This document shows, piece after piece, positions 17,830 to 41,899 of a stretch of 61,067 bases of DNA; the first letter of the stretch is position 1; every line of letters starts with the position of its first letter. The notes under the pieces were generated by a model. That model did no database searches, was not told the origin of the DNA, and was given only the letters and a program-made list of their open reading frames with translations. The DNA is from a virus (Duplodnaviria > Caudoviricetes): the IMG/VR virus record IMGVR_UViG_3300042907_000531, positions 1-61,067 of that record. One strand, written 5' to 3'. Both the position numbers and the translations under genes were made by a program.

Positions 17830-17843
17830 GAAAGGAGGTGCTT

Positions 17844-19514: not shown

Positions 19515-19515
19515 T

Positions 19516-20154: not shown

Positions 20155-21122
20155 TGTTAAACCAAAATAAATTACAAAAATTATTTGAAATAGCTACAGG
20201 ACGTATGCCAGAACAACAACGACTTACTGAAGCTAAACAAAAAGTAAGTGGACTTGATAGAACTAAAAAACGAAAACAAATCTTTAATAGTCTATTTAAA
20301 GATCCATTAACGGCTTTCGAGCGTTGGTATCAAGACTCCCTAAAGGATGTTAATTCAAACAACGTCGATGAGTTTTGGGGAGACGCTGAAACAAGTTTTC
20401 CGGGTAGCCCAGAGCAAGCAAAAGATTGGTTACGTTCTAATGTTAGTAGACCTCAGGATGCTTCTAATAAGGAGTTTACACTTAGAAATACAATGTCTAA
20501 GTCGCCACGTTGGTTACAACAAGAATTATCTCCAGAGTTAGCAGATACCGAACAGATAGTAGCTTCGCAAAACCTAAGTAAGTCTCAGCTAACCTATAGA
20601 AAAGTATTACAGGATAAGATAAATAAGTTTGATTTTTCTGCTTTAGACCAAGATGTCCCGGCTGAAATACATGTTGATGATATGTTAAAGCTTGAGATGA
20701 TGGGTATTCTAGATACAGCATCCGTTATAGATGGTCGTTTTGTTACTCTTAATAAAGATGGAACAATTCAACCAGCCTTTGCTTTAGGTAATTCTGACGA
20801 AGCTGGTGGACTTGGACTTGGACCAGAAACAGAAATTGTCACAAAGATGGCCAAACCCCTATTTGAAAAGGCTGTTGTTTCAGGTCTAGATACTAGTACT
20901 TCTATGCAAGCATTAAATAACAAAGCTGTTATGGGTGTTGGTTTAAAAATGTTACCAGATATGGATATCTCAGAGTGGTCTACTGTTTTAGGGACAATGC
21001 CAAAAGAAGAAATACGTGGAGCTATTCAAACAGGGTTTAATAAAAAAGCAGATATTGATCCCTTCGCATCAAATGAAGATGTACTAGCGGATACTCTTTC
21101 TATACAGGAATTCTTACAATGA
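20154..21122 (+). CDS. Hypothetical protein in internal virion cluster
   Basis: Coupled 322-aa ORF. Confidence 0.7.
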   Translation: MLNQNKLQKLFEIATGRMPEQQRLTEAKQKVSGLDRTKKRKQIFNSLFKDPLTAFERWYQDSLKDVNSNNVDEFWGDAETSFPGSPEQAKDWLRSNVSRPQDASNKEFTLRNTMSKSPRWLQQELSPELADTEQIVASQNLSKSQLTYRKVLQDKINKFDFSALDQDVPAEIHVDDMLKLEMMGILDTASVIDGRFVTLNKDGTIQPAFALGNSDEAGGLGLGPETEIVTKMAKPLFEKAVVSGLDTSTSMQALNNKAVMGVGLKMLPDMDISEWSTVLGTMPKEEIRGAIQTGFNKKADIDPFASNEDVLADTLSIQEFLQ

Positions 21123-24100
21123 TTGAAATGCAAGGTCCGGGTGTATTTTTAAATCCACCCAATAAACCCATATATCAAGAGACACAAACAATACTACCAA
21201 ATGTTGTAGTTGGTGTTGGTCAGGGTGTTGATTGGGGAGCTATTGGTCAATCAGCTTCTCAACTAGGAACTACTCTAGTTGAATACAATATAGATGAAAA
21301 AAGAAAAAAGAAGATGCGGTTACTAGATGATTTAGAAGCTAAAACTAAAAATCAAATTGATTCTGCAGCTTCTATTAATGATTTTGATTCTGTAGATGTG
21401 CTAACTTCTGAGTATAAAAATCAAGTAAAAAATATTGTTGGTTATGATATTGAATCTGATGGCGGTGGACAGACAAGTTCAGTACTTTTAGAAAAGGCTA
21501 GAGAAGTATCTTATGGCTTTGATTTATATCGTCAAAAGGCCAGAAGAGAAACATCTGATGATGTACAACTAGCCGCTTATCGCGATGATAGTTTAACATT
21601 TCAAGAACAACTTCAAAATATTGATGATATTACTACCTTTGAATCTACCGTAAAAGATAGAGAAACACAACTACATCAAATGATTGAGGACAGCAAAAAC
21701 GCACCTCAAACACTAGGACAGATGGCTTATACTGCTTCCATTCGAAAGGATCTATTAGATCTAAATGATTCAGCGAAAAGGGTTAAAGAAGCTAATGTTA
21801 AAACAATAACAGAAGCTAGCGAGAGTAAGAGAAAAGCTGATCTTGGTATTATTCTAAATTTAACCAATTCAATTTCACAAGAATATGCTAATGTTGCTGA
21901 CTTACAAAAACAAATTGATAGTGCTAAAGATGGTGGATTAGAAGCCGATACTGAATTAGTAACTAGGCTTACTATTGAATTAAACTCAAAACTAGATACT
22001 ATTGATGGTTTTCGTACTACAGTAGACGAACAAAAAAACAACTATGCCAAGACTTACTATAATGCAGGGTGGTCAAAGGACCTTGCTGTAAGATACTTAG
22101 GTAAAGAAGATTACAATACTATATTAAATGAACAGGAAAAACACGATGAAGCGTTTAATCTTAGATCTGCTGCTCCATTTAGAGTTGCTAGAGAACGGCA
22201 AAAGACAGCCATAAAGAGTATTAATGATAGAGTAGATACCAGTATAGGTTCTGCTTCTGTTCGGATTGCTGCTATTGATCAACTAATAGATGAAGCACCA
22301 ACTGAGCAAGCAAAAGAAAAACTAAGAATAGCTAGAGATAGTATATTTATAGCGTTAGAAAACGAGTTACTATCTACAGTAGAGGGTGGTGTTCCAGCTT
22401 TTACTAAGGATTTAGTTGCGAGTTATTCTGGTTTAAAGGTACTTGGATCTCGCCCACTTCCATATCCAGTGTATTCACAACGATTGGATGGGACTATGGC
22501 AGATGCAATTGAATCCGAGGTTGCATCCTCTAGTAATATCTATAAAGTCTTTCGACCAACAGTTGATAAGTTTAATGCGTTTTTACAAACACGTTTAGAT
22601 GTTAAGGGAGGTAGCAATACGGGAAGATCAACACAACAAGAAAAACAATTAAAATATAAATTTATTTTAAATACGTTATCGCAAAGACTTCCTATTACTG
22701 CTTCCCGAGAAGATATTAATGGAGCTTATAACTCTTATTTGGTGGAGAGTGGTATTAATATCTATGAGCCGGATGGTATTACACTTAAGCCATATACAGA
22801 AATTGTACCACAACTACAAGAAAAGAATATTAAGCTACCACCAAACGGTTTTATGCATACTGATTTCTTTCAAGATATGCTTCAAAACTATTTACGATCA
22901 CAAACTCCTGTAGATTTAAATAAACTATCTAGTGACTTTGTTACACTTTTCTCAAGCCCTGAAAATGCTTGGTATGGTGGATTAACAGGAGCAAGTGATA
23001 TCAACTCAATGACACGCGGTATTGCTGATATGATTGCTGGTGGACTATCTAGACCAGAAACATCGGGTGTAGCAACAGCCATGTTTTTAATGTTTACACC
23101 AAGAAATCAAATAGATACAAATCTTACAGCACTAGCTGCAGCTATGCCACCTAATGATTTTCTATCAGATAAGGAAGTAAGAAACCTTGGTGTTTTAGCA
23201 CGAGCTTATAATGGAAATGGCGATCCAATTTTATTTGCCGCAGCTAGACAAAAAGATATTAGTATTCTTAAAGCTAAAGAACAAACAATAAAACAAGTAA
23301 ACGATACTGACTCAACAAGCGCATTAGTTGGTAGGTATAAGTCAACAGCTAAAGTAAAAGATGTTAACGAGGAATCCAGAACTGAACTTAATAGTATTGT
23401 TTTAAAGCTTAGAGAATCTGTATTTCCTATCTTAGATATTCCGCGAGACGATGAAACACTTAGTCCTACTGACTTTAATCAGAAATACTTACTTGGTAAT
23501 GCTGTTTCTCAAATAACTAAAGATATTATAACAATGTCTCTAGGTCATTACTATGATCTTTTAATAGACCAACCAAATCTAGACGAAAAATCTAGATTTG
23601 AAAAAGTTACTACCCGTATACAAGATGATCTTAATAACGGATATAGAGCTAGTATAGATGGTTTGAGAAAGGTTGTAACACCAAATGTTAAACAACAATC
23701 ACTAAGCTCTACCATGATTGCTGGATCTAATATTGATTTACCGGGTATTGAAAACAGAGGACAGTATGTACTTAATACCATGCTGGCTTCTGATTGGGAT
23801 CATAATGGATCTGATCACACTGTCTGGAATCAATTTGGTATGGTTACCCGTCCACCAGATACAGATAGACCAACAGCATTAGCTCTGTCTATTTCTGCTA
23901 GTAATGGAACAGACATCTCAAGTATTCCGGGAGATAGATCTTTTAATCTTATGGCCATTGCGGAAGCGGCTGTTGGTGATAAAAAAGATAACAGAACAAT
24001 GTTAATTGCTCAAGCTGCAATTAGAGATCTAAAAAACCCAACCACACTAGCTGATGCAATAAACCAAGTTAGAACAAGAATGGCCAGTTATAAAAGTGGA

Positions 24101-25228
24101 TTAGATTCTGGAGAATATAAGTTTTTTGTCACAACAACTACAAGTAATGCAAACAAGAAAGTCGTATCGCCTTTAGTTACGTTACAGAAAAAAGACGGCA
24201 CTCCAGCTTCTTCCATGCAATTAACGCCTCTACGAGAACCACTTAAAGGTACATCAGTACACAGAGAAACTTTCAAGAGTGTTTCTAAAGAACAATTCAA
24301 TACGTGGGCTGTGAAGCAAATCAACAATGGAACAATAAACCATACCAGTGTTATTGATTACTTAACAATTCATAATATCAATCAGCAGACCTTTAGTGAA
24401 ACAATGCAAGTTGTAATAACTGCTGATGATCTTCCATACCCTTTTATAGCTATACCAACAAGTATTCCAAATGAAGATTATACATATGAGTTCGAAGAAT
24501 ACTTAGGAAAAAAGCAATGGTATGTGACACAAGATGGTGGACAAAGAGTTGCACTTACATCTTCATTTGATACTTCTGACTTACAACCAGTAGGTAAGAA
24601 GATACCAAGTATGTTAGATAAGGTGGTAGGAATCTTTTCACCGACTCCAGACAGCACTGGTATTACATCTGATGGTATTATAGATCGTAAAAGAGTTGTA
24701 ACTACTGTTGCTGGAAAACCAATAGTATTGTCTTATTCAAAACCAACCCTAAGTGATAAGTGGAGTTTAGAGACCACATCTCCAAACGTCACCGAAAAAG
24801 AAATAACAACTGGGGTTGTGGACATGAAAGAAACATATGTTAGTGGTGGTGATGAAGTTGTACGTCTAAAGTATGTAAAACCATCCTCCTCTAAAACTTG
24901 GATTTTAATCGAAGGACCATCTTCAGAAAACGTTACTGATTCTTTTACGGGACGTTTACCAAAAGAAAACAGTATTGTTAAACAAGCACTAGGAATAGAA
25001 GATCCAATTGAACGGTATACTATGATAGCTGGCGAATTACGTCGTCAAGCTATTGCATCTAGCGATAAGACACCAGAAAGCCGTAAAAGAATTTTAGCGG
25101 CTGATAGGTATTTCGATAGAGCTATATCCTTTATGAAGGAACAAAAGAGATTACGTAATGATAGAAAAGATTTATTAACAACTTTCCAAGAGTATGTCTC
25201 TGAGGAAGTAAACCAATTAATTGATTAA
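21119..25228 (+). CDS. Large internal virion protein (gp15-like by position)
   Basis: 1369 aa, largely helical/coiled; synteny only. Confidence 0.6.
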   Translation: MIEMQGPGVFLNPPNKPIYQETQTILPNVVVGVGQGVDWGAIGQSASQLGTTLVEYNIDEKRKKKMRLLDDLEAKTKNQIDSAASINDFDSVDVLTSEYKNQVKNIVGYDIESDGGGQTSSVLLEKAREVSYGFDLYRQKARRETSDDVQLAAYRDDSLTFQEQLQNIDDITTFESTVKDRETQLHQMIEDSKNAPQTLGQMAYTASIRKDLLDLNDSAKRVKEANVKTITEASESKRKADLGIILNLTNSISQEYANVADLQKQIDSAKDGGLEADTELVTRLTIELNSKLDTIDGFRTTVDEQKNNYAKTYYNAGWSKDLAVRYLGKEDYNTILNEQEKHDEAFNLRSAAPFRVARERQKTAIKSINDRVDTSIGSASVRIAAIDQLIDEAPTEQAKEKLRIARDSIFIALENELLSTVEGGVPAFTKDLVASYSGLKVLGSRPLPYPVYSQRLDGTMADAIESEVASSSNIYKVFRPTVDKFNAFLQTRLDVKGGSNTGRSTQQEKQLKYKFILNTLSQRLPITASREDINGAYNSYLVESGINIYEPDGITLKPYTEIVPQLQEKNIKLPPNGFMHTDFFQDMLQNYLRSQTPVDLNKLSSDFVTLFSSPENAWYGGLTGASDINSMTRGIADMIAGGLSRPETSGVATAMFLMFTPRNQIDTNLTALAAAMPPNDFLSDKEVRNLGVLARAYNGNGDPILFAAARQKDISILKAKEQTIKQVNDTDSTSALVGRYKSTAKVKDVNEESRTELNSIVLKLRESVFPILDIPRDDETLSPTDFNQKYLLGNAVSQITKDIITMSLGHYYDLLIDQPNLDEKSRFEKVTTRIQDDLNNGYRASIDGLRKVVTPNVKQQSLSSTMIAGSNIDLPGIENRGQYVLNTMLASDWDHNGSDHTVWNQFGMVTRPPDTDRPTALALSISASNGTDISSIPGDRSFNLMAIAEAAVGDKKDNRTMLIAQAAIRDLKNPTTLADAINQVRTRMASYKSGLDSGEYKFFVTTTTSNANKKVVSPLVTLQKKDGTPASSMQLTPLREPLKGTSVHRETFKSVSKEQFNTWAVKQINNGTINHTSVIDYLTIHNINQQTFSETMQVVITADDLPYPFIAIPTSIPNEDYTYEFEEYLGKKQWYVTQDGGQRVALTSSFDTSDLQPVGKKIPSMLDKVVGIFSPTPDSTGITSDGIIDRKRVVTTVAGKPIVLSYSKPTLSDKWSLETTSPNVTEKEITTGVVDMKETYVSGGDEVVRLKYVKPSSSKTWILIEGPSSENVTDSFTGRLPKENSIVKQALGIEDPIERYTMIAGELRRQAIASSDKTPESRKRILAADRYFDRAISFMKEQKRLRNDRKDLLTTFQEYVSEEVNQLID

Positions 25229-25233
25229 CAAGG

Positions 25234-25257
25234 AGGGGGGGTCGAAAGATCCCCCCT
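25234..25257 (+). terminator. GC-rich hairpin (terminator or processing site)
   Basis: AGGGGGGGTC-GAAA-GATCCCCCCT; weak T tail. Confidence 0.55.
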
Positions 25258-25275
25258 TAACTTATAAGGATTTAT

Positions 25276-28200
25276 ATGATATCTGATCTGAATAAAGTTC
25301 TCGACGAAGCATCACAACCGCTTCGTCCTTCGAACGTGTATTTTTCGTCAGCCACAACTCCAACTACTCAATATAGTGGAGAGAAACCAGATTTAAATGA
25401 ACAACGTATTTACAATGAAAGGGTTCAACTCGGTCTTTTAAGCCCTACCTTTCTTAATGGTAAATGGAATATAGCTGAAACTAACCTTACACGCGAGGAA
25501 ATTGGTGATCAAGCTTTAGCTTATACAATCGGTAACGGTAGTAGGGGTTGGGGTGAAGCTAGTATTCAAAACGCGAAGAAAATAGCTGATCAATATTATA
25601 ATAAGGGTGACGCAATGTTTACCCACGGTGGGAGAGAGACATCTCACTGGGAACAGTTTGTTGAGGGTTTCAATTTTTTTAATGTGTTCGGAGAAAACCA
25701 ATCTCTTCAAACTGCTGAGGAAATTAAAAAGAAAATACAAACTGTAGATCCTCTATGGACAACCGATAAAAAGATAGATGAGTTAACAGAGTGGAAAAAA
25801 ATTAATCCAGACGTTGATAAATTTCTTTCCTCTGCTGGGATTGACGTACAGGATTATGCCCTCAATACTAGAAACCAAGAAGCTTTCCTCTTTAACATGA
25901 ATGAAGCTGTTCAAAACGCTAGAATGAATATTGGTATGGGGTTATTTGAAAGAGATAATAATACTCTTGAGAAACTTGGTAATAGTTTAGCTGAGGGAAT
26001 TAAAGACCCACTAATGCTTCGCGATGTTGTCCTAACTACCGCCGCAACAGCTGGTCTTGGTCTTATTGCGGGTGTTGCTGGTTTATCAGCAAGAGCATTA
26101 TCTGGTGGTATTGTAGCCGGGGTGAATGCATCTAGATCTATAAGGGGTTTAGAACTTGCTCGAAAAGCTGCAAACGCTGCTGCCCTCGCTACTGGACCAA
26201 TGACTGGATTAGTTGAAGGTCCAGCCTATGCCGCTATTCGTTCTATTATACCAGCTACTGGTCGATCTGTTACTTCTACACTAGCAGCTAGGGGTTTGGC
26301 TCTTGGTTTAGAGGGTGGAGTTGCTGGAGCTGTCTCATCACTAGCTGATCAAAGATCAGAACATGAGTGGAGATCTTTAGTTTTTCAGGGTGTTGATCCT
26401 GTTCTAAAGTATAATCTGGGTGAAACAGCCCTAGCTGCATTAACTGGATCGCTAGGTTCAGTTGGGCTAGCTACAGCCTTCCGTTTTGGTTTGGGTTCAA
26501 TTGGCGATTATAAGTATTACAAGACCGGAGATTGGGATAGCTTACGTAGACAAGTTACTAATTCTATGGATACGTGGGCAACCACCCGAGATGGTGACAT
26601 TGTTTGGGGCAATACCCTAAGCGATGGTCGTGGTATGTTCTTTGGTAATGTTATTGATAACTTTATGAAGAATTACGATGGTAGGGATTTTACCAACGTA
26701 ATGTTAAATGGGTCTAGACTCTTTGGTAAGTTTAATCCACGTATTGCTGGAAAAATGAAACTAGATGTAACTAAGGTCTTACCAGTTATTGAAGAGTTTG
26801 AAAAAGCAACAGGAATTGCAGGAGAAGCAGCAATGCTTCGGGTAGATGGAGTTGCTCCTGAAACCAGAAGAGTGTTTGATCTTATCCTCAATGAAAAAAA
26901 CTTAGACGACGCTAACCTTTCTCTTGCTGATGTCAGAAACGTTTTAACAGACTACAACCTTACTCGTTCTAAGGAACTAGTGGGACCAAGACCAACCACA
27001 GCAGTGGAAGGTGTACTTGCTACCATTTCAACCGCGACTAAACAGGTTGATATTGCAAATCAAATTCATCGTCTTATTGGAGCAAAGAGTTTAGATCGCA
27101 AGTTAGAAACAATTGGTATACAATCATCAGATGTAATTAACAACGCGGAAGCAACACTAGGTCGTTCTATAAACTTATCGGATGATGTTGACTTTGGTAA
27201 CTTTGTTGTAGCGGCTAAATATGCTGCTGCCTCAGTTGACGAAGCTCAGGTTGTCGGAACACTAAAGAGAATTCTTAGTGGAGATTTTGGCGGTGGTCGT
27301 ACCATTCCACGAGAAGTAGTTCAATCTATTTTTGCTAATGCGTTTGGTACTAAGCCCTTAATCATTACAGCTTCTGGTTCTAATAAGAACTTTGCTGTAT
27401 CGGTAGATCCAACTATTGGAGAAGTCTTTAGTACTAAACGTACTTTAAAGGTTGGACCTAATGGTAAGTTAGAGATTGAATTAAGAGCTGATGATCCAAC
27501 CTTAAAGTTCTTTACTACAGATAGTATAAGACTAGACACAGAAACATTTAAAACTAAACTAGCTGATTTAAACGATAAGTTAAATACAGTTTGGAATACC
27601 AGCGTAAAGAAAAAGATTAAAGATACAATTGATACCGTTAAGGATATTAAATCAAAAGAAACACTTACTGATTCATTTGCAAGTGGTAAGAGTGTAACAG
27701 TTGATAACATTAAAAAGATCTTTAAACTAACAACGACTGAGGCTACAACCGCAAAAATTATTATGGATTCCTTGGGGTATAGTGGCGATTCGAGCATACT
27801 TCGTATTGCTAAGTTAGCAGCAGATGATCGAAATGCTGAGATTGTATTCGAAGGAACAACAGCTCTGATAAGAGCTACAACATCATCTGATTTAGGTACT
27901 GTAACACATGAGATGTCTCACTACTTACAGGTTATGGTTCTTGATAATTTAGATTCCGAAGCTAGACAAGCCATAGGTATTACAGATGATATGTGGGTTA
28001 AATTTAAAGATTGGGTTGGGTTCACTGGCGATGAGTGGTCTGAGAAGGCCGCAGAAAAGTTTGCAAATGGTATGTCTCAATATGTTAGACGTATTATGGC
28101 TGGTGATGGTCGCGCCCCAGCAACCCAAATTCAAAGGTTGTTTCATCGTATTGGTGATCACCTTGGTGATCTAGGAGAACGATTTAAATCACAAGATGGT

Positions 28201-31200
28201 CTTGAAGCTGGTCTTATTATTTCGGCAGAAGCTGAAAGTGTGTTTGAAGCTTTATTAAATAGATCTAATGATAAGATTGGCGAGTTGTTTGATAGTGCCT
28301 ATCAGGGTCTCTTTCAACGATTATCTAAAGAGAAAAGACAGGCTATTGGTAAAGATATTTTAGGTCAAGCCGCTTTTAGTGATTATCTTGCAAAGAGAGA
28401 ACTCAAACATGAAGCATCTACAAAGGTTATTGATCCGCTTGCTAAAGCGTCGTCTATTAAGTCAGAATCAACCACAGCCATAATTAATAGTATTTATGAT
28501 AACCTTAAGAAATCTGTTACACGAAAAGCAGTTAAAGAAGCTATTACACTTGCTGGTTATACAAAAGAAGAATACATTAAAGATGTAACAACTCTTTTAA
28601 ATAACACTATTGGACAAAAGAATATAACGGCAACTAAACCAGCTCGTCTTGATTCAGCATCAAAACTAGGTGATGATGAATTAGTTGATCTATATTTTGA
28701 TTTATTTTTAGCTGGTTCAACTGACGAATCCTTAAACTATATCAGCGTTATTATTGACACAGAACCTACGCTTATAGTAAAAAGTCGTGGTACTAAAACT
28801 GAAGAAGATTTATTAAAAGAAACAGGATCAACTCCTACAGAACTAGGTGGTAAGATTCCTTCAGATCCAGCATGGATTCTAACCTCGCGTAATGAAAAGA
28901 AAAAAACTTATAGCAAAGACGCATTACTAACGGAAATAAATAAAAGAAAAGATACTGGTATAACTAAACTAGACAAAAGTTTAACAGTCTCTAGTGAACT
29001 TACAGCAGCTCTTGATGAGCTATTTAAGGAAACGGGATTCGTTGACTCGGTTGGTATTCCAGTTAGTCTTACACCAACAGAAAAAATTGTAGTTGAACGA
29101 ACAGCCGCAGCTGTGGAAGCATCGCGACACGCTAGCGATCATATGGCAGCTGTTACTACCGCACTTAGCGAAGATAGGCTATTAGATGCAGCTTTGGCTG
29201 AACGTGCCGAAGTAATTCTTCCAACCGTAATTAATGTGGAAGCAATCCCAACAGATTTAACAGCTAGTCTAACTGCTCTCGGAACGGTGGGAGACACAGC
29301 TAAAGAAGAAGCAACTAGATTAAAGTCATCAATTTCTGTAGCTGAGGTTAAAGAAGTTAAGAATATCGTAGCAGCTGTTGTAGCTAAAACAACAAAATCA
29401 AAACAGTTATTAGACACATACTTAGAAGTTACCGAGAATCAGATTGCTAAGGATTATCTTAAAGCAGAGCTTCGATCACAGATTACAACACTTACAATTG
29501 AAGGCATTGCTGGTTTAGATTCTAATCAATTTAAACGGTTTATCGAACTAGAGGCAATTATTTCTGCTCTTCCATCAGACACAAGAGAAACACTTGCTAT
29601 AGAACAAGCACTTGATCGTGTGCAACAAGACTCCTCTAATGATGCCATGAACCAAGCTATTAGTGTAACTAAGTGGACTAAGCAAGATATTAGTTTATAT
29701 GTTACAGGTAGGTTTCATAGAACAAACGGTTCATTAGTATCAGAATTTATAGATGCTAAGAAATATGTAGAGACTAATATTGTAGCGTATAAGAAACTAA
29801 TAAAAGAAATTATTGATTTAGAATCAACCTATAACGCAGCAGTAACGAAACTTAAGGAAGCTGGTGATATTCTTTCGGTGATCGAAAAGAATAAACTTAC
29901 GGAAATTACTAAATCATTTATTAGTAAGAAGGCACAAATAGGTAAGTTTGAAGCTGCAACGAAAAGACTTAAGCTAGGCGTACTTCGTTCATCTATTACT
30001 GATGTAACAGAAGCCGATCTTATGTTAAAGTCCTCTATTGTTACGTTAAAGACAGAGTGGCTACAGGTGGATAAGGTTGGATCTAAACTAGCAAACCTTA
30101 TTATGGGTAAGTTAGATAATGCTGATTTCCAAGATATTCTAATAACACTAGATAAGAATATAAATAAATTAGTTGATAAGGTTGTGTTTGATGGAGAACC
30201 AACCACAAAACTTTCTCTAGCTGAGTTTAATATAATGACTCCACTAGATAAAGCGGAAGCATGGTCTCGTGGTAATATTAAATCAAACGCTGCTTCTGCC
30301 TTTGTTAAAACAGTAATCAATAATTTAGAACTCAATGCTAAGAGACGTTTAGAGGGAACTAAAAAGGGTGTTCTTACTGGCGATGTAGAGCTTGGTGAAA
30401 AACGAGCGGTTAGTTTAATTGAATCATCTAAGGCTGTTACTAAGACAGAAACAAAAGCAGATAGAGAAGATTTTTACTATAAGCTTGAAGAAGAAGTAAC
30501 ATCATTACGATATGTAGCTTCTCTGTTTTATCAACATCTTGTAGAGACGGATCAAGAAGAATTATCGAAAGTCTTTATGGCGCGTAAACAAGCCATGACA
30601 TCTAGGGGTGAGGTTCTAGCTTCAACTGCTCGTGTTCTAGAAAACTTCGGTATTACTATGACAACGAGTACAGTAAAGAATCGTATATCTAAACTGTCAG
30701 ATGCATTCGAAGATTTCGTTTCTACTCTTCCAGAAGTAGAAGCTACTTCTCTTAAGGCGAAGTTTAGATTCGAAAAAAAGAAAAAGACACTTGCTCAACG
30801 TCTAACAAAAGAAATGACTGATGATGAACTAGATGAATTGGATTCTCTATTTGCTTCAATTCAACCCGGAGAATCATTAGTAGCTCCTGAGTTCTTACGT
30901 ACACTTATAGAAGAATCAACCTCTAGTCTATATCGTAATATTGCAGATGGTTCAGTCTCAAGTGCCGGGGAAGCCCTACAACAGTTGGCTGAAAGTACTA
31001 CATCTAAGTATGCTACACTTGCACAACAATTATTAGAATCACGCGGTGATGTATTAAATAACATTGGTTTACATCTAGCTCTATATGCTAAGGATGATTT
31101 AACTGATGGTGAATTTGTTGGTAACAACATATTTTTAAACGCACGATTTGGTAAGATTAATGTTGTTGTGTTGTTACATGAAATTATTCATGCTATCACA

Positions 31201-34200
31201 AGTAGAGATCTTGATCGCTATGGGTTTGATGATGCAGCTGGTTCTGTTGCGTACTTAGCTACTTTAAATAAATCAATTGAAAGTGGTGTTGGTCCAAACG
31301 GAACTAAGTTAAGTAAGGGTGCTCGTTCTATTATTCAGTCTTATCTTCAAACTATAGACTGGATTGAAACGACACCCAGAGCAATGGATTTACTTGGTAT
31401 TGATTTCAAGGAAAAACTAATTGGTCAAACTGTATCTCAACCTGAAACATCAGCTCATTATGCTATATCAAATATACATGAGTTTGTTGCTGTTGCTCTT
31501 ACTGATGTATCTGTATTAGGATTCTTTGGTGCTGTTCCTGGTTTAACAGGCAGACAATCAAAACCAATTACTGGTATGATTAGGGGAATTGCTGAAAGTA
31601 TCTGGCCTACGCTTCCAGAAAATAAACTTATTCAGCGGATTGATTATTTACGAAAGCAAGTAACAGCTGGTTTAGTAACTGGAGCATTAACAACTAAGAT
31701 AGATATACCAGATCCTGTTGATATTCTTCTTCCGCCGCTTATGCCGGGTACAACCCCGTTTAGGGTTTTTGGTGAAGAAGTATTTAAAACTCAAGGTCTA
31801 GATGTAGCAGATCTACTTAGATCAAATCTAAAGTCAGCCAAGGGTAGAGTATATGCTCAACTTCGAGCTGTAAATCTTCAGGAACAGTTATCCGAATCAG
31901 CTAGAGCTTCAGGTGCAGATGCAACTAAGTTTGAAACTAAGCTTTCTGAATTAATTGATTCAGCTGAAGTACGGAGACGTAATCTCTTAGCAGCTGGACT
32001 CCATGAAGAAATGGAGCCAGAGGATCTTGAAATTATTCAAAGTATGATAAATGGAACAAAAGCGTTTACTCAACGTAGTGCTGATCACCTTACTCGTAGA
32101 GTTGGTGGAAGACCACCATCCGTCAACATAACTTCCAAGTTTGTTGGTAAGTCTTATAGAGATCTTACAGACGATGAACGTAGATCTTTTGTATCTGATG
32201 TTCTTCTTCCTACAGTAGAAAATAAGATGGGTAAGCGTAATCGTAGTGCTGGTATATATTCTATGATAACAGACTCTACAGTCGGTAAGTCTGTAAACTC
32301 TCTTATTGGTGGCGGTGCTGCCTATGGCGATACAGCAGATGCTGACTCTTTATTACTACAATTCTTTTCCAAGATTTATGATCCTCTAATGGACTTACGT
32401 GATGGTGAGTTATCCGGTGTGTTTGAATTATTCTCTGTTGACCTTGTTAATGCTGAAACCAATAACATGTATAGTAGGGCTGGTCTATTAAACATACAGC
32501 GTAAGATTACAACACAGGTCTCAAATACAGCAGAGTTAGAACAACTCTACGAAAAGGCTTGGATGTATCTTAGTAAGCTTTCTGAATTACCGAATGGATT
32601 ACCACATAGAGAACTTATTGTAGAACTAATTAAGGGTGTTCATAAGTATAATGAAGTTATTGGAGAAACCCTAAATAAATATGGTTTCTTAGCTGATCCT
32701 ATGAATCCAACGGAATATGGTACAATACATAAAGTTAATATGCTTGCGTTTGAGGAGCAGAAGCAATTTGTTGATGCTCTTGTAAAACATGCTTTAATTA
32801 AAGAACGAGATAGTAAAGAACTATCTATTGTAACTATGGATGCATTAGGTTGGATTAAACTTGTTAGAGATCCTGATAGTGATACCATTGTCTCTGTAAC
32901 GGTTACTGATGAATCTCCTTTAGTTGATTTTGTTGGTACTTATGATTACTCAAAATTTAAACAACTAGCACTTAAGAAAAACCTAAAGCCAGAGTTATTA
33001 TCGGTTTATGAAAACGGTTTAATCTCTTCACGTGATTACAAGAACTGGGATATCTATAAGTCACGCGGAGATAGTTATACAGCTATCCAGCACACAATGA
33101 CTGTAGCTAAGAATAACTATCTTAATATCGAAGCAGCTGAATCACGTGGTGGTAAGCCACGTACTGAAAGTATTGGTGCTGGTCGTGAAATGGATATCTC
33201 TAGAATTCTATCTCATTCTGAGATTACCAACAATCCAGAATTAGCAAAATACTTTGATAAGGATATCTTCGGACTTATTAACCAACAGTTACGAACAAAT
33301 GTAACAGAAGCTGTAATGACAAAATATATTACAGAAACGTTTGGTCTTAAAATGTCTTGGTTAGATCTTATTGAGGTTTCCAAAAAGCATGGAGAAGCTA
33401 GTCGCGGTCAACTTACAAAGAGTGAGCAAGACTCACTTAATCGTGGGTATGATCGAATTAAAACAATCTGGGAAGCTAATACGGGTAAGATGCTAAGTAG
33501 TAGAGATGGTCTGGATCGTCATTATAGATCCTTATTAGAGAATGGTTCAAGACCTTTAGTATTAGCAGCAAGCGGTTTACGTGCTGCCTTAACATCTACA
33601 GGTGAAACCGTAAGAGCTATTCTACAAAGTAACCATAACCGTGGAATGCTCCGACAAGTATTACCTAACTTTATTCAAACACTAAAGTTATTTAGTCGCG
33701 ATAAGAGACAGACAATCCAACAGGTAGCTTCAGCCACTCACTGGATTAGAGGGCTATCATCTGACCACCTATTACTACGTGCAGAAATGAATCCAAACAA
33801 TCCCTTTGGTGGGACTATTATGGGTGCTAGACGTGGTGGCTGGTTCAAGGACTTGGCTGCAGCTTGGGCTGGTGTTAAGGAACGAAACAAGTTAGAGGAC
33901 TCTATTGTTGGTAAAGCAGCTAATTATTTATCTGTACCAGCAAGTAAGTTAGGTTCTCCACTAGCTTTCGTAAACGATATTACTACAACGCTTCATGTTC
34001 AGAACTTACAATACAACCTAACTCAAAATTCTAAGAAGTTTTTAGCTTTAGCTAATCTCTTAAAGGATGGTGGTACAGATTCATTATCTGGTTTTAGTGA
34101 GTTAGCTACTAAGGTTGGATTATCTCCTAAGGAAGCTATTGACTTATCTTCTATGGGTCTTCTAGATCCCAAGAGAATTGAAGTAATGATTGAAGCTGCT

Positions 34201-34791
34201 AAGGACCAACGTAACTATCGTGAAGGTATGTTAGATGTCCAAAGTCTATTTATCTGGGCAGGCGAAGACCCCACTAAGATTGACACAATCAATCGTATGG
34301 GATCACTTATTAATGCCACAGTTAGACATACCAATACCGACCCCACACTACTTGATTTAAGAATTAATCAATCTGCATACGCCCGATCTATGGGTGTATT
34401 CATGCAATTCTTATTAAGTCACTCCACTCAAGAAATAGGTAGACGTAGACGTTATACAACTACCGCCTACTCTAAACACCTTGCTGGTCTTGTTATGATG
34501 GAAGCTATTGCCTACAGTCTAGCAAGAACTAAAGACGAGGATGAAGATACCTGGGTCTGGCAAGACCTTAATGAGAAACCATTTGAAACCGTAGTTAACT
34601 TTGGTACCTCTCTTCCACTACTAGGAAGTTATCAGTTCTTATCCTCTTTGTTAAGAGCTGGTATCCTTCAGACCCACTCTACCATTACAGGGGACAAGTC
34701 TGATAATACATATAGAGTACCAGATCTATTCTCCGGTCCATCTGAGAATATTCCACGTAAGGCTGTAGATATGATTAAAGATCTACTGTAA
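25276..34791 (+). CDS. Giant internal virion / polyvalent protein (gp16-like by position) with two zincin HExxH modules and a sigma70-like segment
   Basis: 3171 aa; TVTHEMSHY (27907), LLHEIIHA (31177) plus HEFVA (31477); membrane-like GA-rich N-terminal helices. Confidence 0.7.
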   Translation: MISDLNKVLDEASQPLRPSNVYFSSATTPTTQYSGEKPDLNEQRIYNERVQLGLLSPTFLNGKWNIAETNLTREEIGDQALAYTIGNGSRGWGEASIQNAKKIADQYYNKGDAMFTHGGRETSHWEQFVEGFNFFNVFGENQSLQTAEEIKKKIQTVDPLWTTDKKIDELTEWKKINPDVDKFLSSAGIDVQDYALNTRNQEAFLFNMNEAVQNARMNIGMGLFERDNNTLEKLGNSLAEGIKDPLMLRDVVLTTAATAGLGLIAGVAGLSARALSGGIVAGVNASRSIRGLELARKAANAAALATGPMTGLVEGPAYAAIRSIIPATGRSVTSTLAARGLALGLEGGVAGAVSSLADQRSEHEWRSLVFQGVDPVLKYNLGETALAALTGSLGSVGLATAFRFGLGSIGDYKYYKTGDWDSLRRQVTNSMDTWATTRDGDIVWGNTLSDGRGMFFGNVIDNFMKNYDGRDFTNVMLNGSRLFGKFNPRIAGKMKLDVTKVLPVIEEFEKATGIAGEAAMLRVDGVAPETRRVFDLILNEKNLDDANLSLADVRNVLTDYNLTRSKELVGPRPTTAVEGVLATISTATKQVDIANQIHRLIGAKSLDRKLETIGIQSSDVINNAEATLGRSINLSDDVDFGNFVVAAKYAAASVDEAQVVGTLKRILSGDFGGGRTIPREVVQSIFANAFGTKPLIITASGSNKNFAVSVDPTIGEVFSTKRTLKVGPNGKLEIELRADDPTLKFFTTDSIRLDTETFKTKLADLNDKLNTVWNTSVKKKIKDTIDTVKDIKSKETLTDSFASGKSVTVDNIKKIFKLTTTEATTAKIIMDSLGYSGDSSILRIAKLAADDRNAEIVFEGTTALIRATTSSDLGTVTHEMSHYLQVMVLDNLDSEARQAIGITDDMWVKFKDWVGFTGDEWSEKAAEKFANGMSQYVRRIMAGDGRAPATQIQRLFHRIGDHLGDLGERFKSQDGLEAGLIISAEAESVFEALLNRSNDKIGELFDSAYQGLFQRLSKEKRQAIGKDILGQAAFSDYLAKRELKHEASTKVIDPLAKASSIKSESTTAIINSIYDNLKKSVTRKAVKEAITLAGYTKEEYIKDVTTLLNNTIGQKNITATKPARLDSASKLGDDELVDLYFDLFLAGSTDESLNYISVIIDTEPTLIVKSRGTKTEEDLLKETGSTPTELGGKIPSDPAWILTSRNEKKKTYSKDALLTEINKRKDTGITKLDKSLTVSSELTAALDELFKETGFVDSVGIPVSLTPTEKIVVERTAAAVEASRHASDHMAAVTTALSEDRLLDAALAERAEVILPTVINVEAIPTDLTASLTALGTVGDTAKEEATRLKSSISVAEVKEVKNIVAAVVAKTTKSKQLLDTYLEVTENQIAKDYLKAELRSQITTLTIEGIAGLDSNQFKRFIELEAIISALPSDTRETLAIEQALDRVQQDSSNDAMNQAISVTKWTKQDISLYVTGRFHRTNGSLVSEFIDAKKYVETNIVAYKKLIKEIIDLESTYNAAVTKLKEAGDILSVIEKNKLTEITKSFISKKAQIGKFEAATKRLKLGVLRSSITDVTEADLMLKSSIVTLKTEWLQVDKVGSKLANLIMGKLDNADFQDILITLDKNINKLVDKVVFDGEPTTKLSLAEFNIMTPLDKAEAWSRGNIKSNAASAFVKTVINNLELNAKRRLEGTKKGVLTGDVELGEKRAVSLIESSKAVTKTETKADREDFYYKLEEEVTSLRYVASLFYQHLVETDQEELSKVFMARKQAMTSRGEVLASTARVLENFGITMTTSTVKNRISKLSDAFEDFVSTLPEVEATSLKAKFRFEKKKKTLAQRLTKEMTDDELDELDSLFASIQPGESLVAPEFLRTLIEESTSSLYRNIADGSVSSAGEALQQLAESTTSKYATLAQQLLESRGDVLNNIGLHLALYAKDDLTDGEFVGNNIFLNARFGKINVVVLLHEIIHAITSRDLDRYGFDDAAGSVAYLATLNKSIESGVGPNGTKLSKGARSIIQSYLQTIDWIETTPRAMDLLGIDFKEKLIGQTVSQPETSAHYAISNIHEFVAVALTDVSVLGFFGAVPGLTGRQSKPITGMIRGIAESIWPTLPENKLIQRIDYLRKQVTAGLVTGALTTKIDIPDPVDILLPPLMPGTTPFRVFGEEVFKTQGLDVADLLRSNLKSAKGRVYAQLRAVNLQEQLSESARASGADATKFETKLSELIDSAEVRRRNLLAAGLHEEMEPEDLEIIQSMINGTKAFTQRSADHLTRRVGGRPPSVNITSKFVGKSYRDLTDDERRSFVSDVLLPTVENKMGKRNRSAGIYSMITDSTVGKSVNSLIGGGAAYGDTADADSLLLQFFSKIYDPLMDLRDGELSGVFELFSVDLVNAETNNMYSRAGLLNIQRKITTQVSNTAELEQLYEKAWMYLSKLSELPNGLPHRELIVELIKGVHKYNEVIGETLNKYGFLADPMNPTEYGTIHKVNMLAFEEQKQFVDALVKHALIKERDSKELSIVTMDALGWIKLVRDPDSDTIVSVTVTDESPLVDFVGTYDYSKFKQLALKKNLKPELLSVYENGLISSRDYKNWDIYKSRGDSYTAIQHTMTVAKNNYLNIEAAESRGGKPRTESIGAGREMDISRILSHSEITNNPELAKYFDKDIFGLINQQLRTNVTEAVMTKYITETFGLKMSWLDLIEVSKKHGEASRGQLTKSEQDSLNRGYDRIKTIWEANTGKMLSSRDGLDRHYRSLLENGSRPLVLAASGLRAALTSTGETVRAILQSNHNRGMLRQVLPNFIQTLKLFSRDKRQTIQQVASATHWIRGLSSDHLLLRAEMNPNNPFGGTIMGARRGGWFKDLAAAWAGVKERNKLEDSIVGKAANYLSVPASKLGSPLAFVNDITTTLHVQNLQYNLTQNSKKFLALANLLKDGGTDSLSGFSELATKVGLSPKEAIDLSSMGLLDPKRIEVMIEAAKDQRNYREGMLDVQSLFIWAGEDPTKIDTINRMGSLINATVRHTNTDPTLLDLRINQSAYARSMGVFMQFLLSHSTQEIGRRRRYTTTAYSKHLAGLVMMEAIAYSLARTKDEDEDTWVWQDLNEKPFETVVNFGTSLPLLGSYQFLSSLLRAGILQTHSTITGDKSDNTYRVPDLFSGPSENIPRKAVDMIKDLL

Positions 34792-36450: not shown

Positions 36451-36797
36451 TGCGTGTAATTGAGCATCATATGGTTCAGGCGTTCAAGAAATGTGTACAT
36501 GGTAATTTGTCGCGATATCGTACCGGTAATACTAGTGTATGGTGTGAAGGTACTAAAGTGTGTATATCTCTCCATGGTAACACCATCATAACACATGATA
36601 TTACATGTCCGAATGAATACTTCTTCGATACGTGCGGGTGGCACACTAGAACTACCTTTAGCCGTATGAATACCTTTGCTCATATTATGGGTATAGATGT
36701 TAGGTTCTATACCAACAAACATATCTCGTGTGTAAGGGATCGTGGACAAGACCATAAACTATTTGGTAGTTACTTATACAAAGGAAAGACACAATGA
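36450..36797 (+). CDS. Hypothetical early protein
   Basis: SLHGNTI and DTCGWHTRTTFSRMN pattern. Confidence 0.65.
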   Translation: MRVIEHHMVQAFKKCVHGNLSRYRTGNTSVWCEGTKVCISLHGNTIITHDITCPNEYFFDTCGWHTRTTFSRMNTFAHIMGIDVRFYTNKHISCVRDRGQDHKLFGSYLYKGKTQ

Positions 36798-36834
36798 ATA
36801 CTGCTGTCTACACCATCATGGAGTCATCTATCCG

Positions 36835-37221
36835 ATGATTACGTACATTGTTTCTTTGGCACTATGTGTGCCACCACCTAGTGGTACAGATGTGACCGGC
36901 TATCTGTCTGCTATTCGTCAAGTCGAAAGTAGTGGCAAGGATAATGCCGTGGGAGATAATGGCAAGGCTATTGGTCCATATCAAATTCATCGTGAGTATT
37001 GGGTAGACGCTACAACCTATGATCCATCTATTGGTGGGGTATATAAGGATTGTTTCAAGGAACCGTATGCACGCAAGATTGTGATCGCATATATGTCAAG
37101 GTATGCTCCAAACTGGAACCTATCAACTATCGCCGGTATTCATAACGGTGGTCCTAAGGGTCATGTTCGAAAGTCAACGCAAGTATATCGAAACAAAGTA
37201 ACAAAGGAATATAATGACTAA
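36835..37221 (+). CDS. Lysozyme-like protein (i-type/destabilase-like) with N-terminal hydrophobic segment
   Basis: AIRQVES (catalytic Glu), GDNGKAIGPYQIHREYWVDA, YMSRY and IHNGGPKG. Confidence 0.75.
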   Translation: MITYIVSLALCVPPPSGTDVTGYLSAIRQVESSGKDNAVGDNGKAIGPYQIHREYWVDATTYDPSIGGVYKDCFKEPYARKIVIAYMSRYAPNWNLSTIAGIHNGGPKGHVRKSTQVYRNKVTKEYND

Positions 37222-39502: not shown

Positions 39503-41899
39503 ATGAATAATCTCTGTTATGGTAAACAATGGATAGCAGAAAAGAATAAGAATAATAAACTTAATCTTAATGCGATTATTGAAGAGTCAATGGCTGATAA
39601 ATCTATTATGGATTATTGTGAGGAACGTAATCGTTCTCTTGGAATACCTGAAACAGATCTATGTCATGCTCTTGTTGGCTTGACAGAAGAAGCCATTGAA
39701 CAATACCTATCCGAACTTAAGAAGAGAAATCTTTCATGGATTACTCCAATCTATAAATTAGGATCACGAACTGTTGCTGCTCTTATTGTTTCTACCTATT
39801 TAGATTTCGTATTTGTTGATGGATCTTTACCAAAGATTCAATCAGTTATTAAACACATGCGAGTTAATCTAGAACTAGCAAGTACATTTCATCATACTAA
39901 GCAAAGTAATTCTGGTGCTTGGGTTATTGCATCACGTTCTCTTGGAAAGAGTTGGTCACGTAGACAGATGCAAGAGTTTATAAAGACTCACTCCTCTAAT
40001 ACTGACTGTCGAATACCTAAAAAAGATGGTGAAACTTTATGTATTCATCTTATTGATGTCTTAATTCGTATTGGGTTGTGTGAAGAACGCTATAGTTATG
40101 ATGATAAGGGTAATAGAACAACCTGGTTAATGCCAACTGATACGATCACAAAGAATTTAAATGCTGTACACGATGAACTCATGGCTATGGCAAAGATTAT
40201 CTATGCACCCATGATTGTTCCTCCGGTACGTCATACAACAACTGAGTGTGGTGGTACTCATTCACCACATCTTCGTAAGGGTATTGTATCATCCTCTTAT
40301 CTTTACTTTCAAGACGAAACATTTAAAACTAAGTATAGTGGATCTGAACCATCTGAAGAGTGTGTTACTGCTCTTAATAAACTAATGTCTACGGAGTGGT
40401 GTGTAAATCAACGTGTATTTTCTGTGATGAAAGATTTATTCGAAAATAATACACGTGTTGGTAATCTACCACCGTTTGAACCCGATCCAAAACTATTCTC
40501 AGATGATAATTCAGACAATTCTATACGAATTTCTTTATGGAAAGATTGGTTTCGTCGTCTTAACGATACAGTTAGAATGCATCTTAGGTTAAAGATTGCT
40601 AACGATATGATTGGTCACGGTTACTTCTATCATGGGTGGACGTTTGACTTTAGAGGTAGGGCTTATGCTCTATCCGATTTATTGTCACCACAGTCTGGTG
40701 ATCACGATAAATCACTACTAATGTTTGCGAATCCAATGAAGCAAACCACAAGTGGTAGGTATTGGTTAAAGATTCATGTTGCAAATCTATTTGATCAAGA
40801 TAAGTTATCTTTTGATCAGCGTATTGCTTGGGTTGATGCTAATATGGGAATGCTGACTGCTATTAATAAGTGTCCATATACATCCATAAAGTTCTGGTCA
40901 GATAATAAGCCAAAGAAAAACCAATCATTCCAACGATTGGCCGCTGTATTTGAGTTGTGTCGTACTGATGGAATGACTCAACTACCCATTGGTATGGATG
41001 GATCTTGTAATGGTATCCAACATTGGGCAGCAATTGCAAGAGATCCAGTCATTGGTGCTATGGTCAATCTTATTCCTTCTAATAAACCCGGTGATGCCTA
41101 TTCTGTTGTGGCTGAAGAGGTTACAATTAGTATGAATAAGTGTGTTGGTATTGATGATTGGGCTACAATTATGATGGCCTACTGGAATGGAAAAGTTAAT
41201 CGTAGCGTTGTTAAGAGAGCTGTTATGACAGATCCGTATGGTGTTACTAAGCGTGGTATTGTTGATGGATTAGTTAATGATGGCAACTTAGTGTTCATTG
41301 ATATTAAACAACGATATAAAGCAGCAAACTATCTAGCCGACCATATCATTAAAGCTATGGGTAATCTTCTAAAGATTCCAAATGCAGGTAAGATATGGCT
41401 TAAGAAGGTTACAGAGATTGCAGCAGACCTTGGTAAGCATCTTGCATGGACTACACAAACAGGTTTTCTTGTTCGGCATCGGTACTATCCATTAGTTACA
41501 CGATCAGTTGATATCTATACGTTAGTAAAACGTAGGCAAGTTTTGTTTGCTGAGTTTGATAAGTATTCTGTTCAACCACGCCGAGCAAAGAATGGTATCT
41601 CTCCAAATGTAATCCATTCTTTTGATGCTGCTCATATGATTAAGACAATTACCAACATGGCTAATTGTGGTATTGAAGATTTCTCCTTTATACATGATTC
41701 ATATGGCTGTCATGCTCCAATGGTAAGTGTAATGAGAACAATCACGCAAGAAGAGTTTGTAAAACTTCATAGTAGTAACTTACTAGAAGATCTAAAAAAT
41801 CAATTTGAAGAATACCTTGGAGTAAAACTTCCTGATGTACCCAAGACTGGTACATTAGATATTAATCAAGTCTTTGAAAGCGAGTACTTCTTTCATTGA
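39503..41899 (+). CDS. T7-like single-subunit DNA-directed RNA polymerase
   Basis: PMIVPP, DFRGRAY, DGSCNGIQH (motif A), RSVVKRAVMTDPYG (motif B), PNVIHSFDA and IHDSYG (motif C); ends YFFH. Confidence 0.97.
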   Translation: MNNLCYGKQWIAEKNKNNKLNLNAIIEESMADKSIMDYCEERNRSLGIPETDLCHALVGLTEEAIEQYLSELKKRNLSWITPIYKLGSRTVAALIVSTYLDFVFVDGSLPKIQSVIKHMRVNLELASTFHHTKQSNSGAWVIASRSLGKSWSRRQMQEFIKTHSSNTDCRIPKKDGETLCIHLIDVLIRIGLCEERYSYDDKGNRTTWLMPTDTITKNLNAVHDELMAMAKIIYAPMIVPPVRHTTTECGGTHSPHLRKGIVSSSYLYFQDETFKTKYSGSEPSEECVTALNKLMSTEWCVNQRVFSVMKDLFENNTRVGNLPPFEPDPKLFSDDNSDNSIRISLWKDWFRRLNDTVRMHLRLKIANDMIGHGYFYHGWTFDFRGRAYALSDLLSPQSGDHDKSLLMFANPMKQTTSGRYWLKIHVANLFDQDKLSFDQRIAWVDANMGMLTAINKCPYTSIKFWSDNKPKKNQSFQRLAAVFELCRTDGMTQLPIGMDGSCNGIQHWAAIARDPVIGAMVNLIPSNKPGDAYSVVAEEVTISMNKCVGIDDWATIMMAYWNGKVNRSVVKRAVMTDPYGVTKRGIVDGLVNDGNLVFIDIKQRYKAANYLADHIIKAMGNLLKIPNAGKIWLKKVTEIAADLGKHLAWTTQTGFLVRHRYYPLVTRSVDIYTLVKRRQVLFAEFDKYSVQPRRAKNGISPNVIHSFDAAHMIKTITNMANCGIEDFSFIHDSYGCHAPMVSVMRTITQEEFVKLHSSNLLEDLKNQFEEYLGVKLPDVPKTGTLDINQVFESEYFFH

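Follow-up and report, generated by a model that had tools for sequence, protein, structure and literature searches.

A probable giant ejection protein with two predicted zincin domains and an N4 gp50-like layout in an uncultured T7-like podophage

The window analysed here, the whole stretch of 61,067 bases of IMG/VR record IMGVR_UViG_3300042907_000531, carries at positions 25276-34791 an open reading frame (ORF) of 3171 amino acids (aa). This ORF probably encodes the largest ejection protein (internal virion protein, IVP) of a deeply divergent, uncultured T7-like podophage, with the layout of phage N4 gp50 minus the polymerase. A first-pass annotation made from the sequence alone had described it as a giant ejected protein in which a sigma70-like module is placed between two zincin peptidases. 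The parts concerning the ejected protein and the zincin sites were supported by the analysis described below, and the sigma factor was not. The domain order would be a conserved N-terminal region containing a segment that probably inserts into the membrane, then zincin 1, helical modules, zincin 2, a linker with a cargo slot and, finally, a gp16-like domain. The corresponding features are as follows.

25276-34791, + strand: giant ORF, 3171 aa (protein P0001), uninterrupted frame; predicted gp16/IVP-D-type ejection protein with a polyvalent-protein-like N-terminal extension
25276-28575, + strand: conserved N-terminal region, aa 1-1100, with 30-38% identity even to the most distant relatives
26011-26118, + strand: Gly/Ala-rich hydrophobic segment, aa 246-281, candidate membrane-spanning helices by Kyte-Doolittle analysis, kept in the consensus of alignment A1
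27673-28455, + strand: predicted zincin 1, aa ~800-1060, with HEMSH at 27907-27921 (aa 878) and Glu927 at 28054-28056
28576-30042, + strand: fast-evolving helical middle region, aa ~1101-1589, from the identity profile
30043-30762, + strand: segment first annotated as sigma-like, two helical domains (aa 1590-1692 and 1729-1829) predicted by AlphaFold2 (AF2), seen only in the giant family
30355-30453, + strand: predicted disordered linker between the helical domains, aa 1694-1726, with a predicted local distance difference test (pLDDT) value below 50, directly 3' of a basic GTKK motif
30913-31665, + strand: predicted zincin 2, aa ~1880-2130, with HEIIH at 31177-31191 (aa 1968) and Glu2069 at 31480-31482; homologue of N4 gp50 C1 by profile comparison
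31831-31866, + strand: junction KSAKGRVYAQLR, aa 2186-2197, a cargo slot that is empty here, inside the low-confidence linker aa 2132-2190
31843-34788, + strand: C-terminal helical domain, aa 2190-3171, the most conserved part, T7 gp16/IVP-D-like in Foldseek searches of the PDB and BFVD

The assignment as an ejection protein was based mainly on the fold predicted for the C-terminal domain. An AF2 model spanning aa 1880-3079 only (24 sequences, mean pLDDT 64) was compared with the PDB using Foldseek, and the top match was 9jyy_I ('core proteins of mature T7') with E 3.2e-3 and probability 0.98 over 882 columns, the runner-up reaching a probability of 0.14. The T7 gp16 sequence was found in PDB entries 7eyb, 7k5c and 9jyy, and since only gp16 is long enough for a chain of 1223 residues, 9jyy_I is gp16. 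In BFVD there were 17 matches at E<=1e-3, of which 4 are named as internal virion or core proteins and 9 are unnamed or uncharacterised. Among the matches were the 'putative internal core protein' of Ralstonia phage RSB3 (7.3e-7), the 'internal virion protein' of Burkholderia phage JG068, two proteins named 'internal virion protein D', one 'large polyvalent protein-associated domain' fragment and one 'Matrixin' fragment. Since fragments of uncultured phages to which BFVD automatically gives the name 'large polyvalent protein-associated domain' match by fold, relatives are already present, unnoticed, in public databases. The gp16/IVP-D assignment of the C-terminal ~980 aa is well supported by predicted fold and context, not proven, and is in line with the first-pass description of a giant ejected protein encoded in an internal-virion cluster.

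The ORF itself is real in the sense first annotated, being a single uninterrupted frame, and the giant gene is a single ORF also at loci L001 and L008-L011, the frames of the relatives being 3.1-4.5 thousand aa long. A search of 5.8 billion proteins gave 22 matches at E<=0.001, all metagenomic and 1916-4417 aa in length; 21 of them are giants of 2570-4417 aa and the remaining one is an unrelated protein of 1916 aa (P0023). Searching 1.84 billion representative proteins with a profile added four further giants. No Pfam, PHROG or NCBIfam model matched P0001, DUF2433 being the sole Pfam entry at E<=1, and no match to P0001 was found in 50,697 phage records by megablast or tblastn. Scanning IMG/VR with the middle region of the giant alone gave no relatives, and hmmsearch of the PDB with the whole-protein profile gave 0 matches at E<=10. 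The family alignments are shallow, with 16-24 sequences. The identity profile along the protein has four zones, namely a conserved N-terminal part of ~1100 aa, a fast-evolving middle part with insertion hot spots at aa ~1301-1350 and aa 1551-1650, an insertion point at aa ~2196, and the last ~980 aa, which are strongly conserved.

Both HExxH sites were present at the positions first annotated, HEMSH being followed 3' by AEKFA (aa 926, nucleotide (nt) 28051) and HEIIH by HEFVA (aa 2068, nt 31477). With a His content of 1.1%, 0.027 HExxH motifs are expected by chance in P0001 and two were observed; 0 of 2000 shuffled sequences had two or more and 2.65% had at least one, so the presence of two motifs is not due to chance. 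Exactly two HExxH motifs, each with a conserved downstream Glu, were found at corresponding positions in 25/25 full-length family proteins. In the alignment of 18 proteins, H1968/E1969/H1972/E2069 of zincin 2 are invariant (18/18), and H878/E879/H882/E927 of zincin 1 are present in 17, the 18th being an N-terminally truncated fragment.

Whether the HExxH regions fold as zincins had been left by the first-pass annotation as a check, and for zincin 2 the AF2 model points to such a fold. In the model, three N-terminal helices are followed by strands at aa 1931-1937, 1945-1948 and 1951-1955 (block pLDDT 55-84), HEIIH is located on a helix at aa 1963-1980 and Glu2069 on a later helix at aa 2067-2076. 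PMC5512222 describes the core of zincin-like metallopeptidases (MPTases) as made up of strands, an HExxH helix and a later Glu helix. Only weak matches in the PDB (best E 0.15) were obtained with a five-sequence profile of zincin 2; they included two Spartan/SprT chains and two chains from phage ejection proteins. The latter are 11fw_A (E 0.18), a 'virion DNA-directed RNA polymerase' of 2493 aa, and 9sfn_G (E 0.84), an 'internal virion protein' of 1337 aa, and in each of them the profile was aligned at the HExxH as well as at the N-x-x-E-[FL]-x-A-x-x-L-T helix. N4 gp50 has one HExxH, at residue 2228, and an NEF helix at 2309, both within its C1 domain (residues 2124-2375). According to the 2026 structural paper on N4 (PMC13434306), C1 bears a conserved HExxH and is followed by C2, a helical domain of ~110 kDa. 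Comparison of the 18-sequence zincin 2 block with N4 C1 by hhalign gave 93.7% (E 1.9e-7, 198 columns, score 53.6), whereas the maximum for 60 shuffles of C1 with HELVH kept fixed was 35% with a score of 32.8. Because the real value is far above those of the shuffles, zincin 2 is, by profile comparison, a homologue of N4 gp50 C1.

Two observations on HExxH motifs in other ejection proteins were made alongside. In 9sfn_G the zincin 2 profile was aligned at ~416-440 (HExxH helix) and at ~490-509 (N-x-x-E-L-x-A-x-G-L-T-D helix), and a C1-like zincin may occur in IVP-D proteins of ordinary size too. T7 gp16 (L019 4596-8549) has a lone HERLH, at aa 559, which is neither preceded by a hydrophobic strand nor followed by a matching Glu-helix motif; this HERLH is probably a chance occurrence or a decayed remnant of a C1-like domain.

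Zincin 1 is likewise predicted to be a zincin-type metallopeptidase domain, as a part of the architecture that we hold to be the probable one. Sub-threshold Pfam matches were obtained to Peptidase_M43 in 3/5 members and to Reprolysin_5 in 1/5. The hhalign value of zincin 1 against N4 C1 was weak (15.9%), the maximum in 60 shuffles being 2.7%. The neighbours of zincin 1 in the protein atlas, which are to be taken as leads only, were the LPD1, LPD5 and LPD23 clusters at 0.90-0.91 and ART-PolyVal at 0.83. A PDB hmmsearch with the zincin 1 profile gave one unrelated match only (E 1.1). The idea that zincin 1 and zincin 2 are paralogues was rejected at an hhalign value of 1.4%, and they were treated as different families. 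The metagenomic protein P0023 (1916 aa) shares only the zincin 1 core with the giant (29% identity over P0001 aa 852-998, with HEVAH at its residue 852), and therefore zincin 1 exists outside the giant family too.

The nearest known layout is that of N4 gp50 (3500 aa), the closest characterised homologue. It too is a giant ejected protein, with an N-terminal region that is hydrophobic and binds membranes, centrally placed cargo, an HExxH domain and a helical C-terminus of ~1000 aa. The C-terminus of gp50 was assigned to the IVP-D family by Hardies et al. (PMC4819975). The membrane helices predicted in the N-terminal domain (NTD) of gp50, residues 224-278 (PMC13434306), are at about the same position as the hydrophobic segment aa 246-281 of the giant; this is an analogy only, the hhalign value of the giant's N-terminus against the N4 NTD being 0.4%. 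Outside C1, no similarity between gp50 and the giant was detected by hhalign. In contrast to gp50, the giant is without an RNA polymerase (RNAP) module, a T7-type RNAP being encoded separately, and it has a second, distinct zincin at aa 878. Furthermore, the cargo of N4 is located upstream of C1, whereas relatives of the giant carry cargo between the C1-like and C2-like parts. Like T7 gp16 (IVP-D, 1318 aa), the giant is the largest ejection protein encoded in a T7-like genome, and its C-terminal ~900 aa match gp16 by fold. However, it is 2.4 times longer, has no transglycosylase domain and no sequence-level similarity to gp16, its HExxH sites differ from the HERLH of gp16 in having the Glu-helix motif, and its gene follows the terminase gene. 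The giant also resembles the polyvalent proteins (PMC5512222) in being very large and multidomain, in being a late or virion gene adjoining terminase and structural genes, and in carrying more than one zincin-like MPTase between other domains. The kinship with polyvalent proteins suggested at first is supported by the presence of ART-PolyVal in the same polypeptide in relatives and by the homology of zincin 2 to the HExxH domain of the N4 virion RNA polymerase (vRNAP), although P0001 itself matches no Pfam polyvalent-protein model. The main text of PMC5512222 contains 0 mentions of gp16, of internal virion proteins or of T7-like phages.

If the giant behaves like its counterparts in T7 and N4, it would be stored in the capsid core and leave the particle before the DNA does. 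Its N-terminal and gp16-like parts would help to form the end of the ejection channel at the inner membrane, the modules in the middle would reach the cytoplasm, and the protein apart from its hydrophobic segment would refold past the inner membrane. That the catalytic Glu of each HExxH motif is invariant speaks for enzymatic activity of the two domains. Their substrate could, tentatively, be the ejected protein itself, which would be cut into working pieces as suggested for polyvalent proteins, for which autoprocessing has been proposed (Iyer et al. 2017, PMC5512222).

A number of results weigh against this reading of the giant and of its processing. The TM-scores of the C-terminal fold matches are low (0.14-0.31), as expected for flexible helical giants; the E value of the top PDB match, 3.2e-3, is just outside the Foldseek line of 0.001, and long helical proteins draw spurious fold matches. 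The C-terminus was found in 0 PHROG families and had no match by tblastn in the 50,697 phage records, and its hhalign values were 0.6% against T7 gp16 and 0.2% against the C-terminal domain (CTD) of N4 gp50; there was also no link by hhalign to T7 gp15. These sequence nulls agree with Hardies et al. (PMC4819975), who describe IVP-C and IVP-D as notoriously hard to match by sequence. All Pfam peptidase matches were below the cut-off, and no PDB zincin was among the listed best 50 Foldseek rows for the 1200-aa model. The gene cluster follows the terminase gene, while that of T7 is located between tail tubular protein B and the fibres. As to self-processing, N4 vRNAP is reported to be packaged unprocessed (PMC5512222) and purified full-length N4 vRNAP gave 'no evidence of degradation' (PMC13434306). 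No repeated motif resembling a cleavage site was found at the module borders of the giant; Q[LK][RK][AD], considered as such a motif, was rejected as it was found only at the border of the gp16-like domain.

The zincins could instead be directed against the host, either cutting cell-wall peptides or envelope proteins at penetration, in place of the T7 gp16 transglycosylase, or attacking host or defence proteins in the cytoplasm. Ejection proteins do carry wall-degrading domains, T7 gp16 being annotated with an endolysin domain and gp28 of cyanophage A4 combining transglycosylase and M23 metallopeptidase domains (PMC12002296); MPTases as effectors are allowed by Iyer et al. (PMC5512222), and the stability of full-length N4 gp50 (PMC13434306) is also in favour of an external target. 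No lysozyme or transglycosylase domain was found by Pfam and PHROG in the four ORFs of the presumed internal-virion cluster. However, the two zincins have no similarity to any known peptidoglycan peptidase family in Pfam. M23 peptidases are not HExxH enzymes. The zincin 2 homologue C1 is moreover placed in the cytoplasm by the N4 model (PMC13434306), and host-directed action of the zincins seems rather doubtful to us. It is more unlikely still that the HExxH domains do no proteolysis and serve the ejectosome as metal-binding modules of a structural or regulatory kind, for instance as a C1-like domain docking on adjacent cargo and holding it back, in the way that the N4 CTD restrains the RNAP. 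In N4 the CTD (C1 and C2) binds and autoinhibits the RNAP domain with no cleavage reported in the structural account, which also mentions that HExxH occurs in enzymes other than proteases (PMC13434306). The invariance of the catalytic Glu together with the metal ligands in 25 proteins, down to ~20% local identity, speaks against a purely structural role.

The remaining claim of the first-pass annotation concerned the segment between the zincins. It was proposed that aa ~1670-1815 are a sigma70-like factor which is excised by the zincins after ejection and redirects host RNAP before the phage RNAP is made. The strings on which the likeness to sigma regions 2 and 4 was based are indeed present, AFVKTVINNLELNAKRR at nt 30298-30348, AVSLIE at 30406, ELSKVFMAR at 30559 and ARVLENFGITMTTSTVKNRISKL at 30628-30696, and the module is flanked by the two conserved zincins. 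An AF2 model of aa 1560-1860 (16 sequences, mean pLDDT 67.8) gave two helical domains, with block pLDDT of ~77-92 for the first and 74-88 for the second, joined by the disordered linker, a layout that is also found in sigma-2/sigma-4. The successive helices of 13, 11 and 21 residues predicted in the second domain are similar to a three-helix DNA-binding unit. In a Foldseek search of the PDB with this model the first of 37 rows was chain F of 5xj0, a T. thermophilus RNAP holoenzyme entry, and we take this chain to be sigma-A. However, the match is at the level of noise (E 2.6, probability 0.04, TM 0.15), 5xj0 is the sole RNAP holoenzyme entry in the 37 rows, and rows for serum albumin score alike. 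The check by AF2 and Foldseek that had been suggested gave 0 matches at E<=0.001.

Nor was a sigma signal obtained by any of the sequence methods. Sigma and helix-turn-helix (HTH) Pfam models gave none in P0001 at E<=1 and 0/10 family members at E<=10. A six-frame search of the whole record with Sigma70_r4_2 (PF08281) yielded 0 matches at E<=10; its controls were positive in 14/14 genomes. In the protein atlas the segment had no sigma cluster among its neighbours, the best, at 0.86, being DUF5685. Alignment of the segment (A3) with alignments of six E. coli sigma factors by hhalign gave 0.64%, 0.73% and 0.11%, compared with 93.5% for the positive control, extracytoplasmic function (ECF) versus group 1-3 sigma factors. 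In the 1.84 billion representative proteins the segment profile matched 9 proteins by hmmsearch, all of them giants of the family, 3171-4538 aa long. The supposed HTH turn has 6 residues here and gains an insertion of 5 residues in distant relatives, and the letters TVKNRISKL of the 'recognition helix' are not kept there. Sigma70 identity was therefore rejected as unsupported: hidden Markov model (HMM) searches, profile-profile comparison and atlas were negative, no fold match was significant, and the HTH loop is variable in length. The letters first noted stand, but there is no statistical link to sigma factors, and what is left is a loose likeness of two helical domains with a flexible linker and short motif resemblances. 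The segment forms a two-domain helical module specific to this family and is not recognisable as a sigma factor, and the proposal of an excised sigma70 factor is very unlikely to be right. It is very improbable, too, that the zincins cut at flexible linkers and free effectors which include aa 1590-1829 as a new factor directed at host RNAP and unrelated in sequence to sigma-70; if this were true, a T7-like phage would inject a transcription-takeover protein where N4 injects a polymerase. Since the module is found in nine giants, including distant ones, a built-in part of the giant protein suits it better than a swappable effector. A basic G-T-K-K-G motif (nt 30340-30360, aa ~1689-1695) was observed to be nearly invariant in close and distant relatives, and it could be a docking or a cleavage site.

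A place for exchangeable cargo was found elsewhere, between zincin 2 and the gp16-like domain, where the linker aa 2132-2190 is disordered in the AF2 model. Inserts of 350-1230 aa are present in relatives directly after the invariant KGRVYAQL. In two of these proteins the Pfam domain ART-PolyVal was identified directly upstream of the gp16-like part and after zincin 2, at aa 2355-2543 of P0004 (E 2.3e-18) and at aa 2863-3037 of P0020 (E 7.4e-22). The domain is listed in precomputed annotation for 5/22 relatives and was confirmed in 2/2 of those scanned. A second class of inserts, ~870-1230 aa in length and having two modules in common, is present in P0009, P0012, P0013, P0014 and P0016. No BLAST similarity was found between this class and the ART class, and there was no Pfam match in the two members scanned, P0012 and P0016, an ART domain in P0012 having been sought at E<=0.01. 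A weak 'F-Y-R-G-T ... G-S-W-W-G-T' pattern was noticed in comparison with the ART class, at an hhalign value of 2%, with which an ART identity is not confirmable. Cargo modules are thus mosaic among the relatives, and the sole effector-type domains recognised in P0001 are its zincins.

The setting of the gene was examined in the same record, which is classed as linear with a CheckV completeness estimate of 90%. PHROG matches include a T7-type RNA polymerase, primase-helicase, DNA polymerase, exonuclease and ribonucleotide reductase, and, among structural genes, portal, scaffold, major capsid protein, tail tubular proteins A and B, fibres and large terminase. Judged by these predicted genes, the genome is that of a T7-like podophage; the portal has ~32% identity to Autographiviridae portals. 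The separate single-subunit T7-type RNAP gene is located at 39503-41899. Within 17838-34791, the presumed internal-virion cluster is placed 3' of the large terminase, at the end of the structural block, and includes upstream of the giant the following feature.

19516-25228, + strand: three ORFs of 212, 322 and 1369 aa, candidate equivalents of T7 gp13/14/15 by size order and synteny only

None of the three had a match in Pfam, PHROG or phage tblastn. The synteny large terminase (TerL)-212-322-1369-giant is common to L001, L008, L009, L010 and L011, and in its fuller form the shared order is small ORF, TerL, 212 aa, 322 aa, ~1400-1600 aa, giant, small ORFs, RNAP. As L001 and L009 encode an identical protein, the five loci represent four distinct relatives. 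The position of the cluster after the terminase is kept in every relative with enough flanking DNA. The internal-virion setting named at first is supported for the giant protein by its fold matches to T7 gp16, while the three upstream ORFs are assigned by size and synteny only.

The 1369-aa ORF (21119-25228) has 39-42% identity to its counterparts in L001, L008 and L009, the terminases of which are ~90% identical, and no BLAST match in L010 and L011, although an ORF of 1388-1634 aa occupies the equivalent place there; it is a candidate for a very fast-evolving gp15-like tunnel protein. Outside the cluster, an early-region ORF of 159 aa (36742-37221) matches Pfam Destabilase (i-type lysozyme) above the cut-off (E 9.9e-10) and is kept in L004, L011 and L012 with 56-68% identity.

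The underlying concept is already known. Internal virion proteins are hosts to lysozyme domains and to domains destined for the cytoplasm, such as the N4 polymerase in an IVP-D homologue and the methylase in H66 gp60 (Hardies et al., PMC4819975), and polyvalent proteins with multiple zincins and ADP-ribosyltransferases (ARTs) have been described (Iyer, Burroughs, Anand, de Souza and Aravind 2017, PMC5512222). As far as our literature searches show, supplements aside, an N4-gp50-like layout in a T7-type genome with its own T7-type RNAP is new, as are the second zincin, the cargo slot between the C1-like and gp16-like parts, and the family-specific helical module.

The giant gives no evidence for an injected sigma factor. 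It links two textbook ejection systems, in that a T7-type genome with its RNAP carries an ejection protein in the style of N4 gp50. Processing of ejected polyproteins by HExxH domains has been proposed since 2017, and cleavage is not reported for N4 in the available text of the two papers concerned (PMC5512222, PMC13434306). The slot, empty in some members of the family and filled in others, is a natural series in which such processing can be tested. The giant also supports the view that the unit of a C1-like zincin and IVP-D is an old chassis onto which podoviruses have loaded different cargo, a transglycosylase in T7, a polymerase in N4, a methylase in H66 and, in this lineage, a second zincin, helical modules and, in relatives, ADP-ribosyltransferases.

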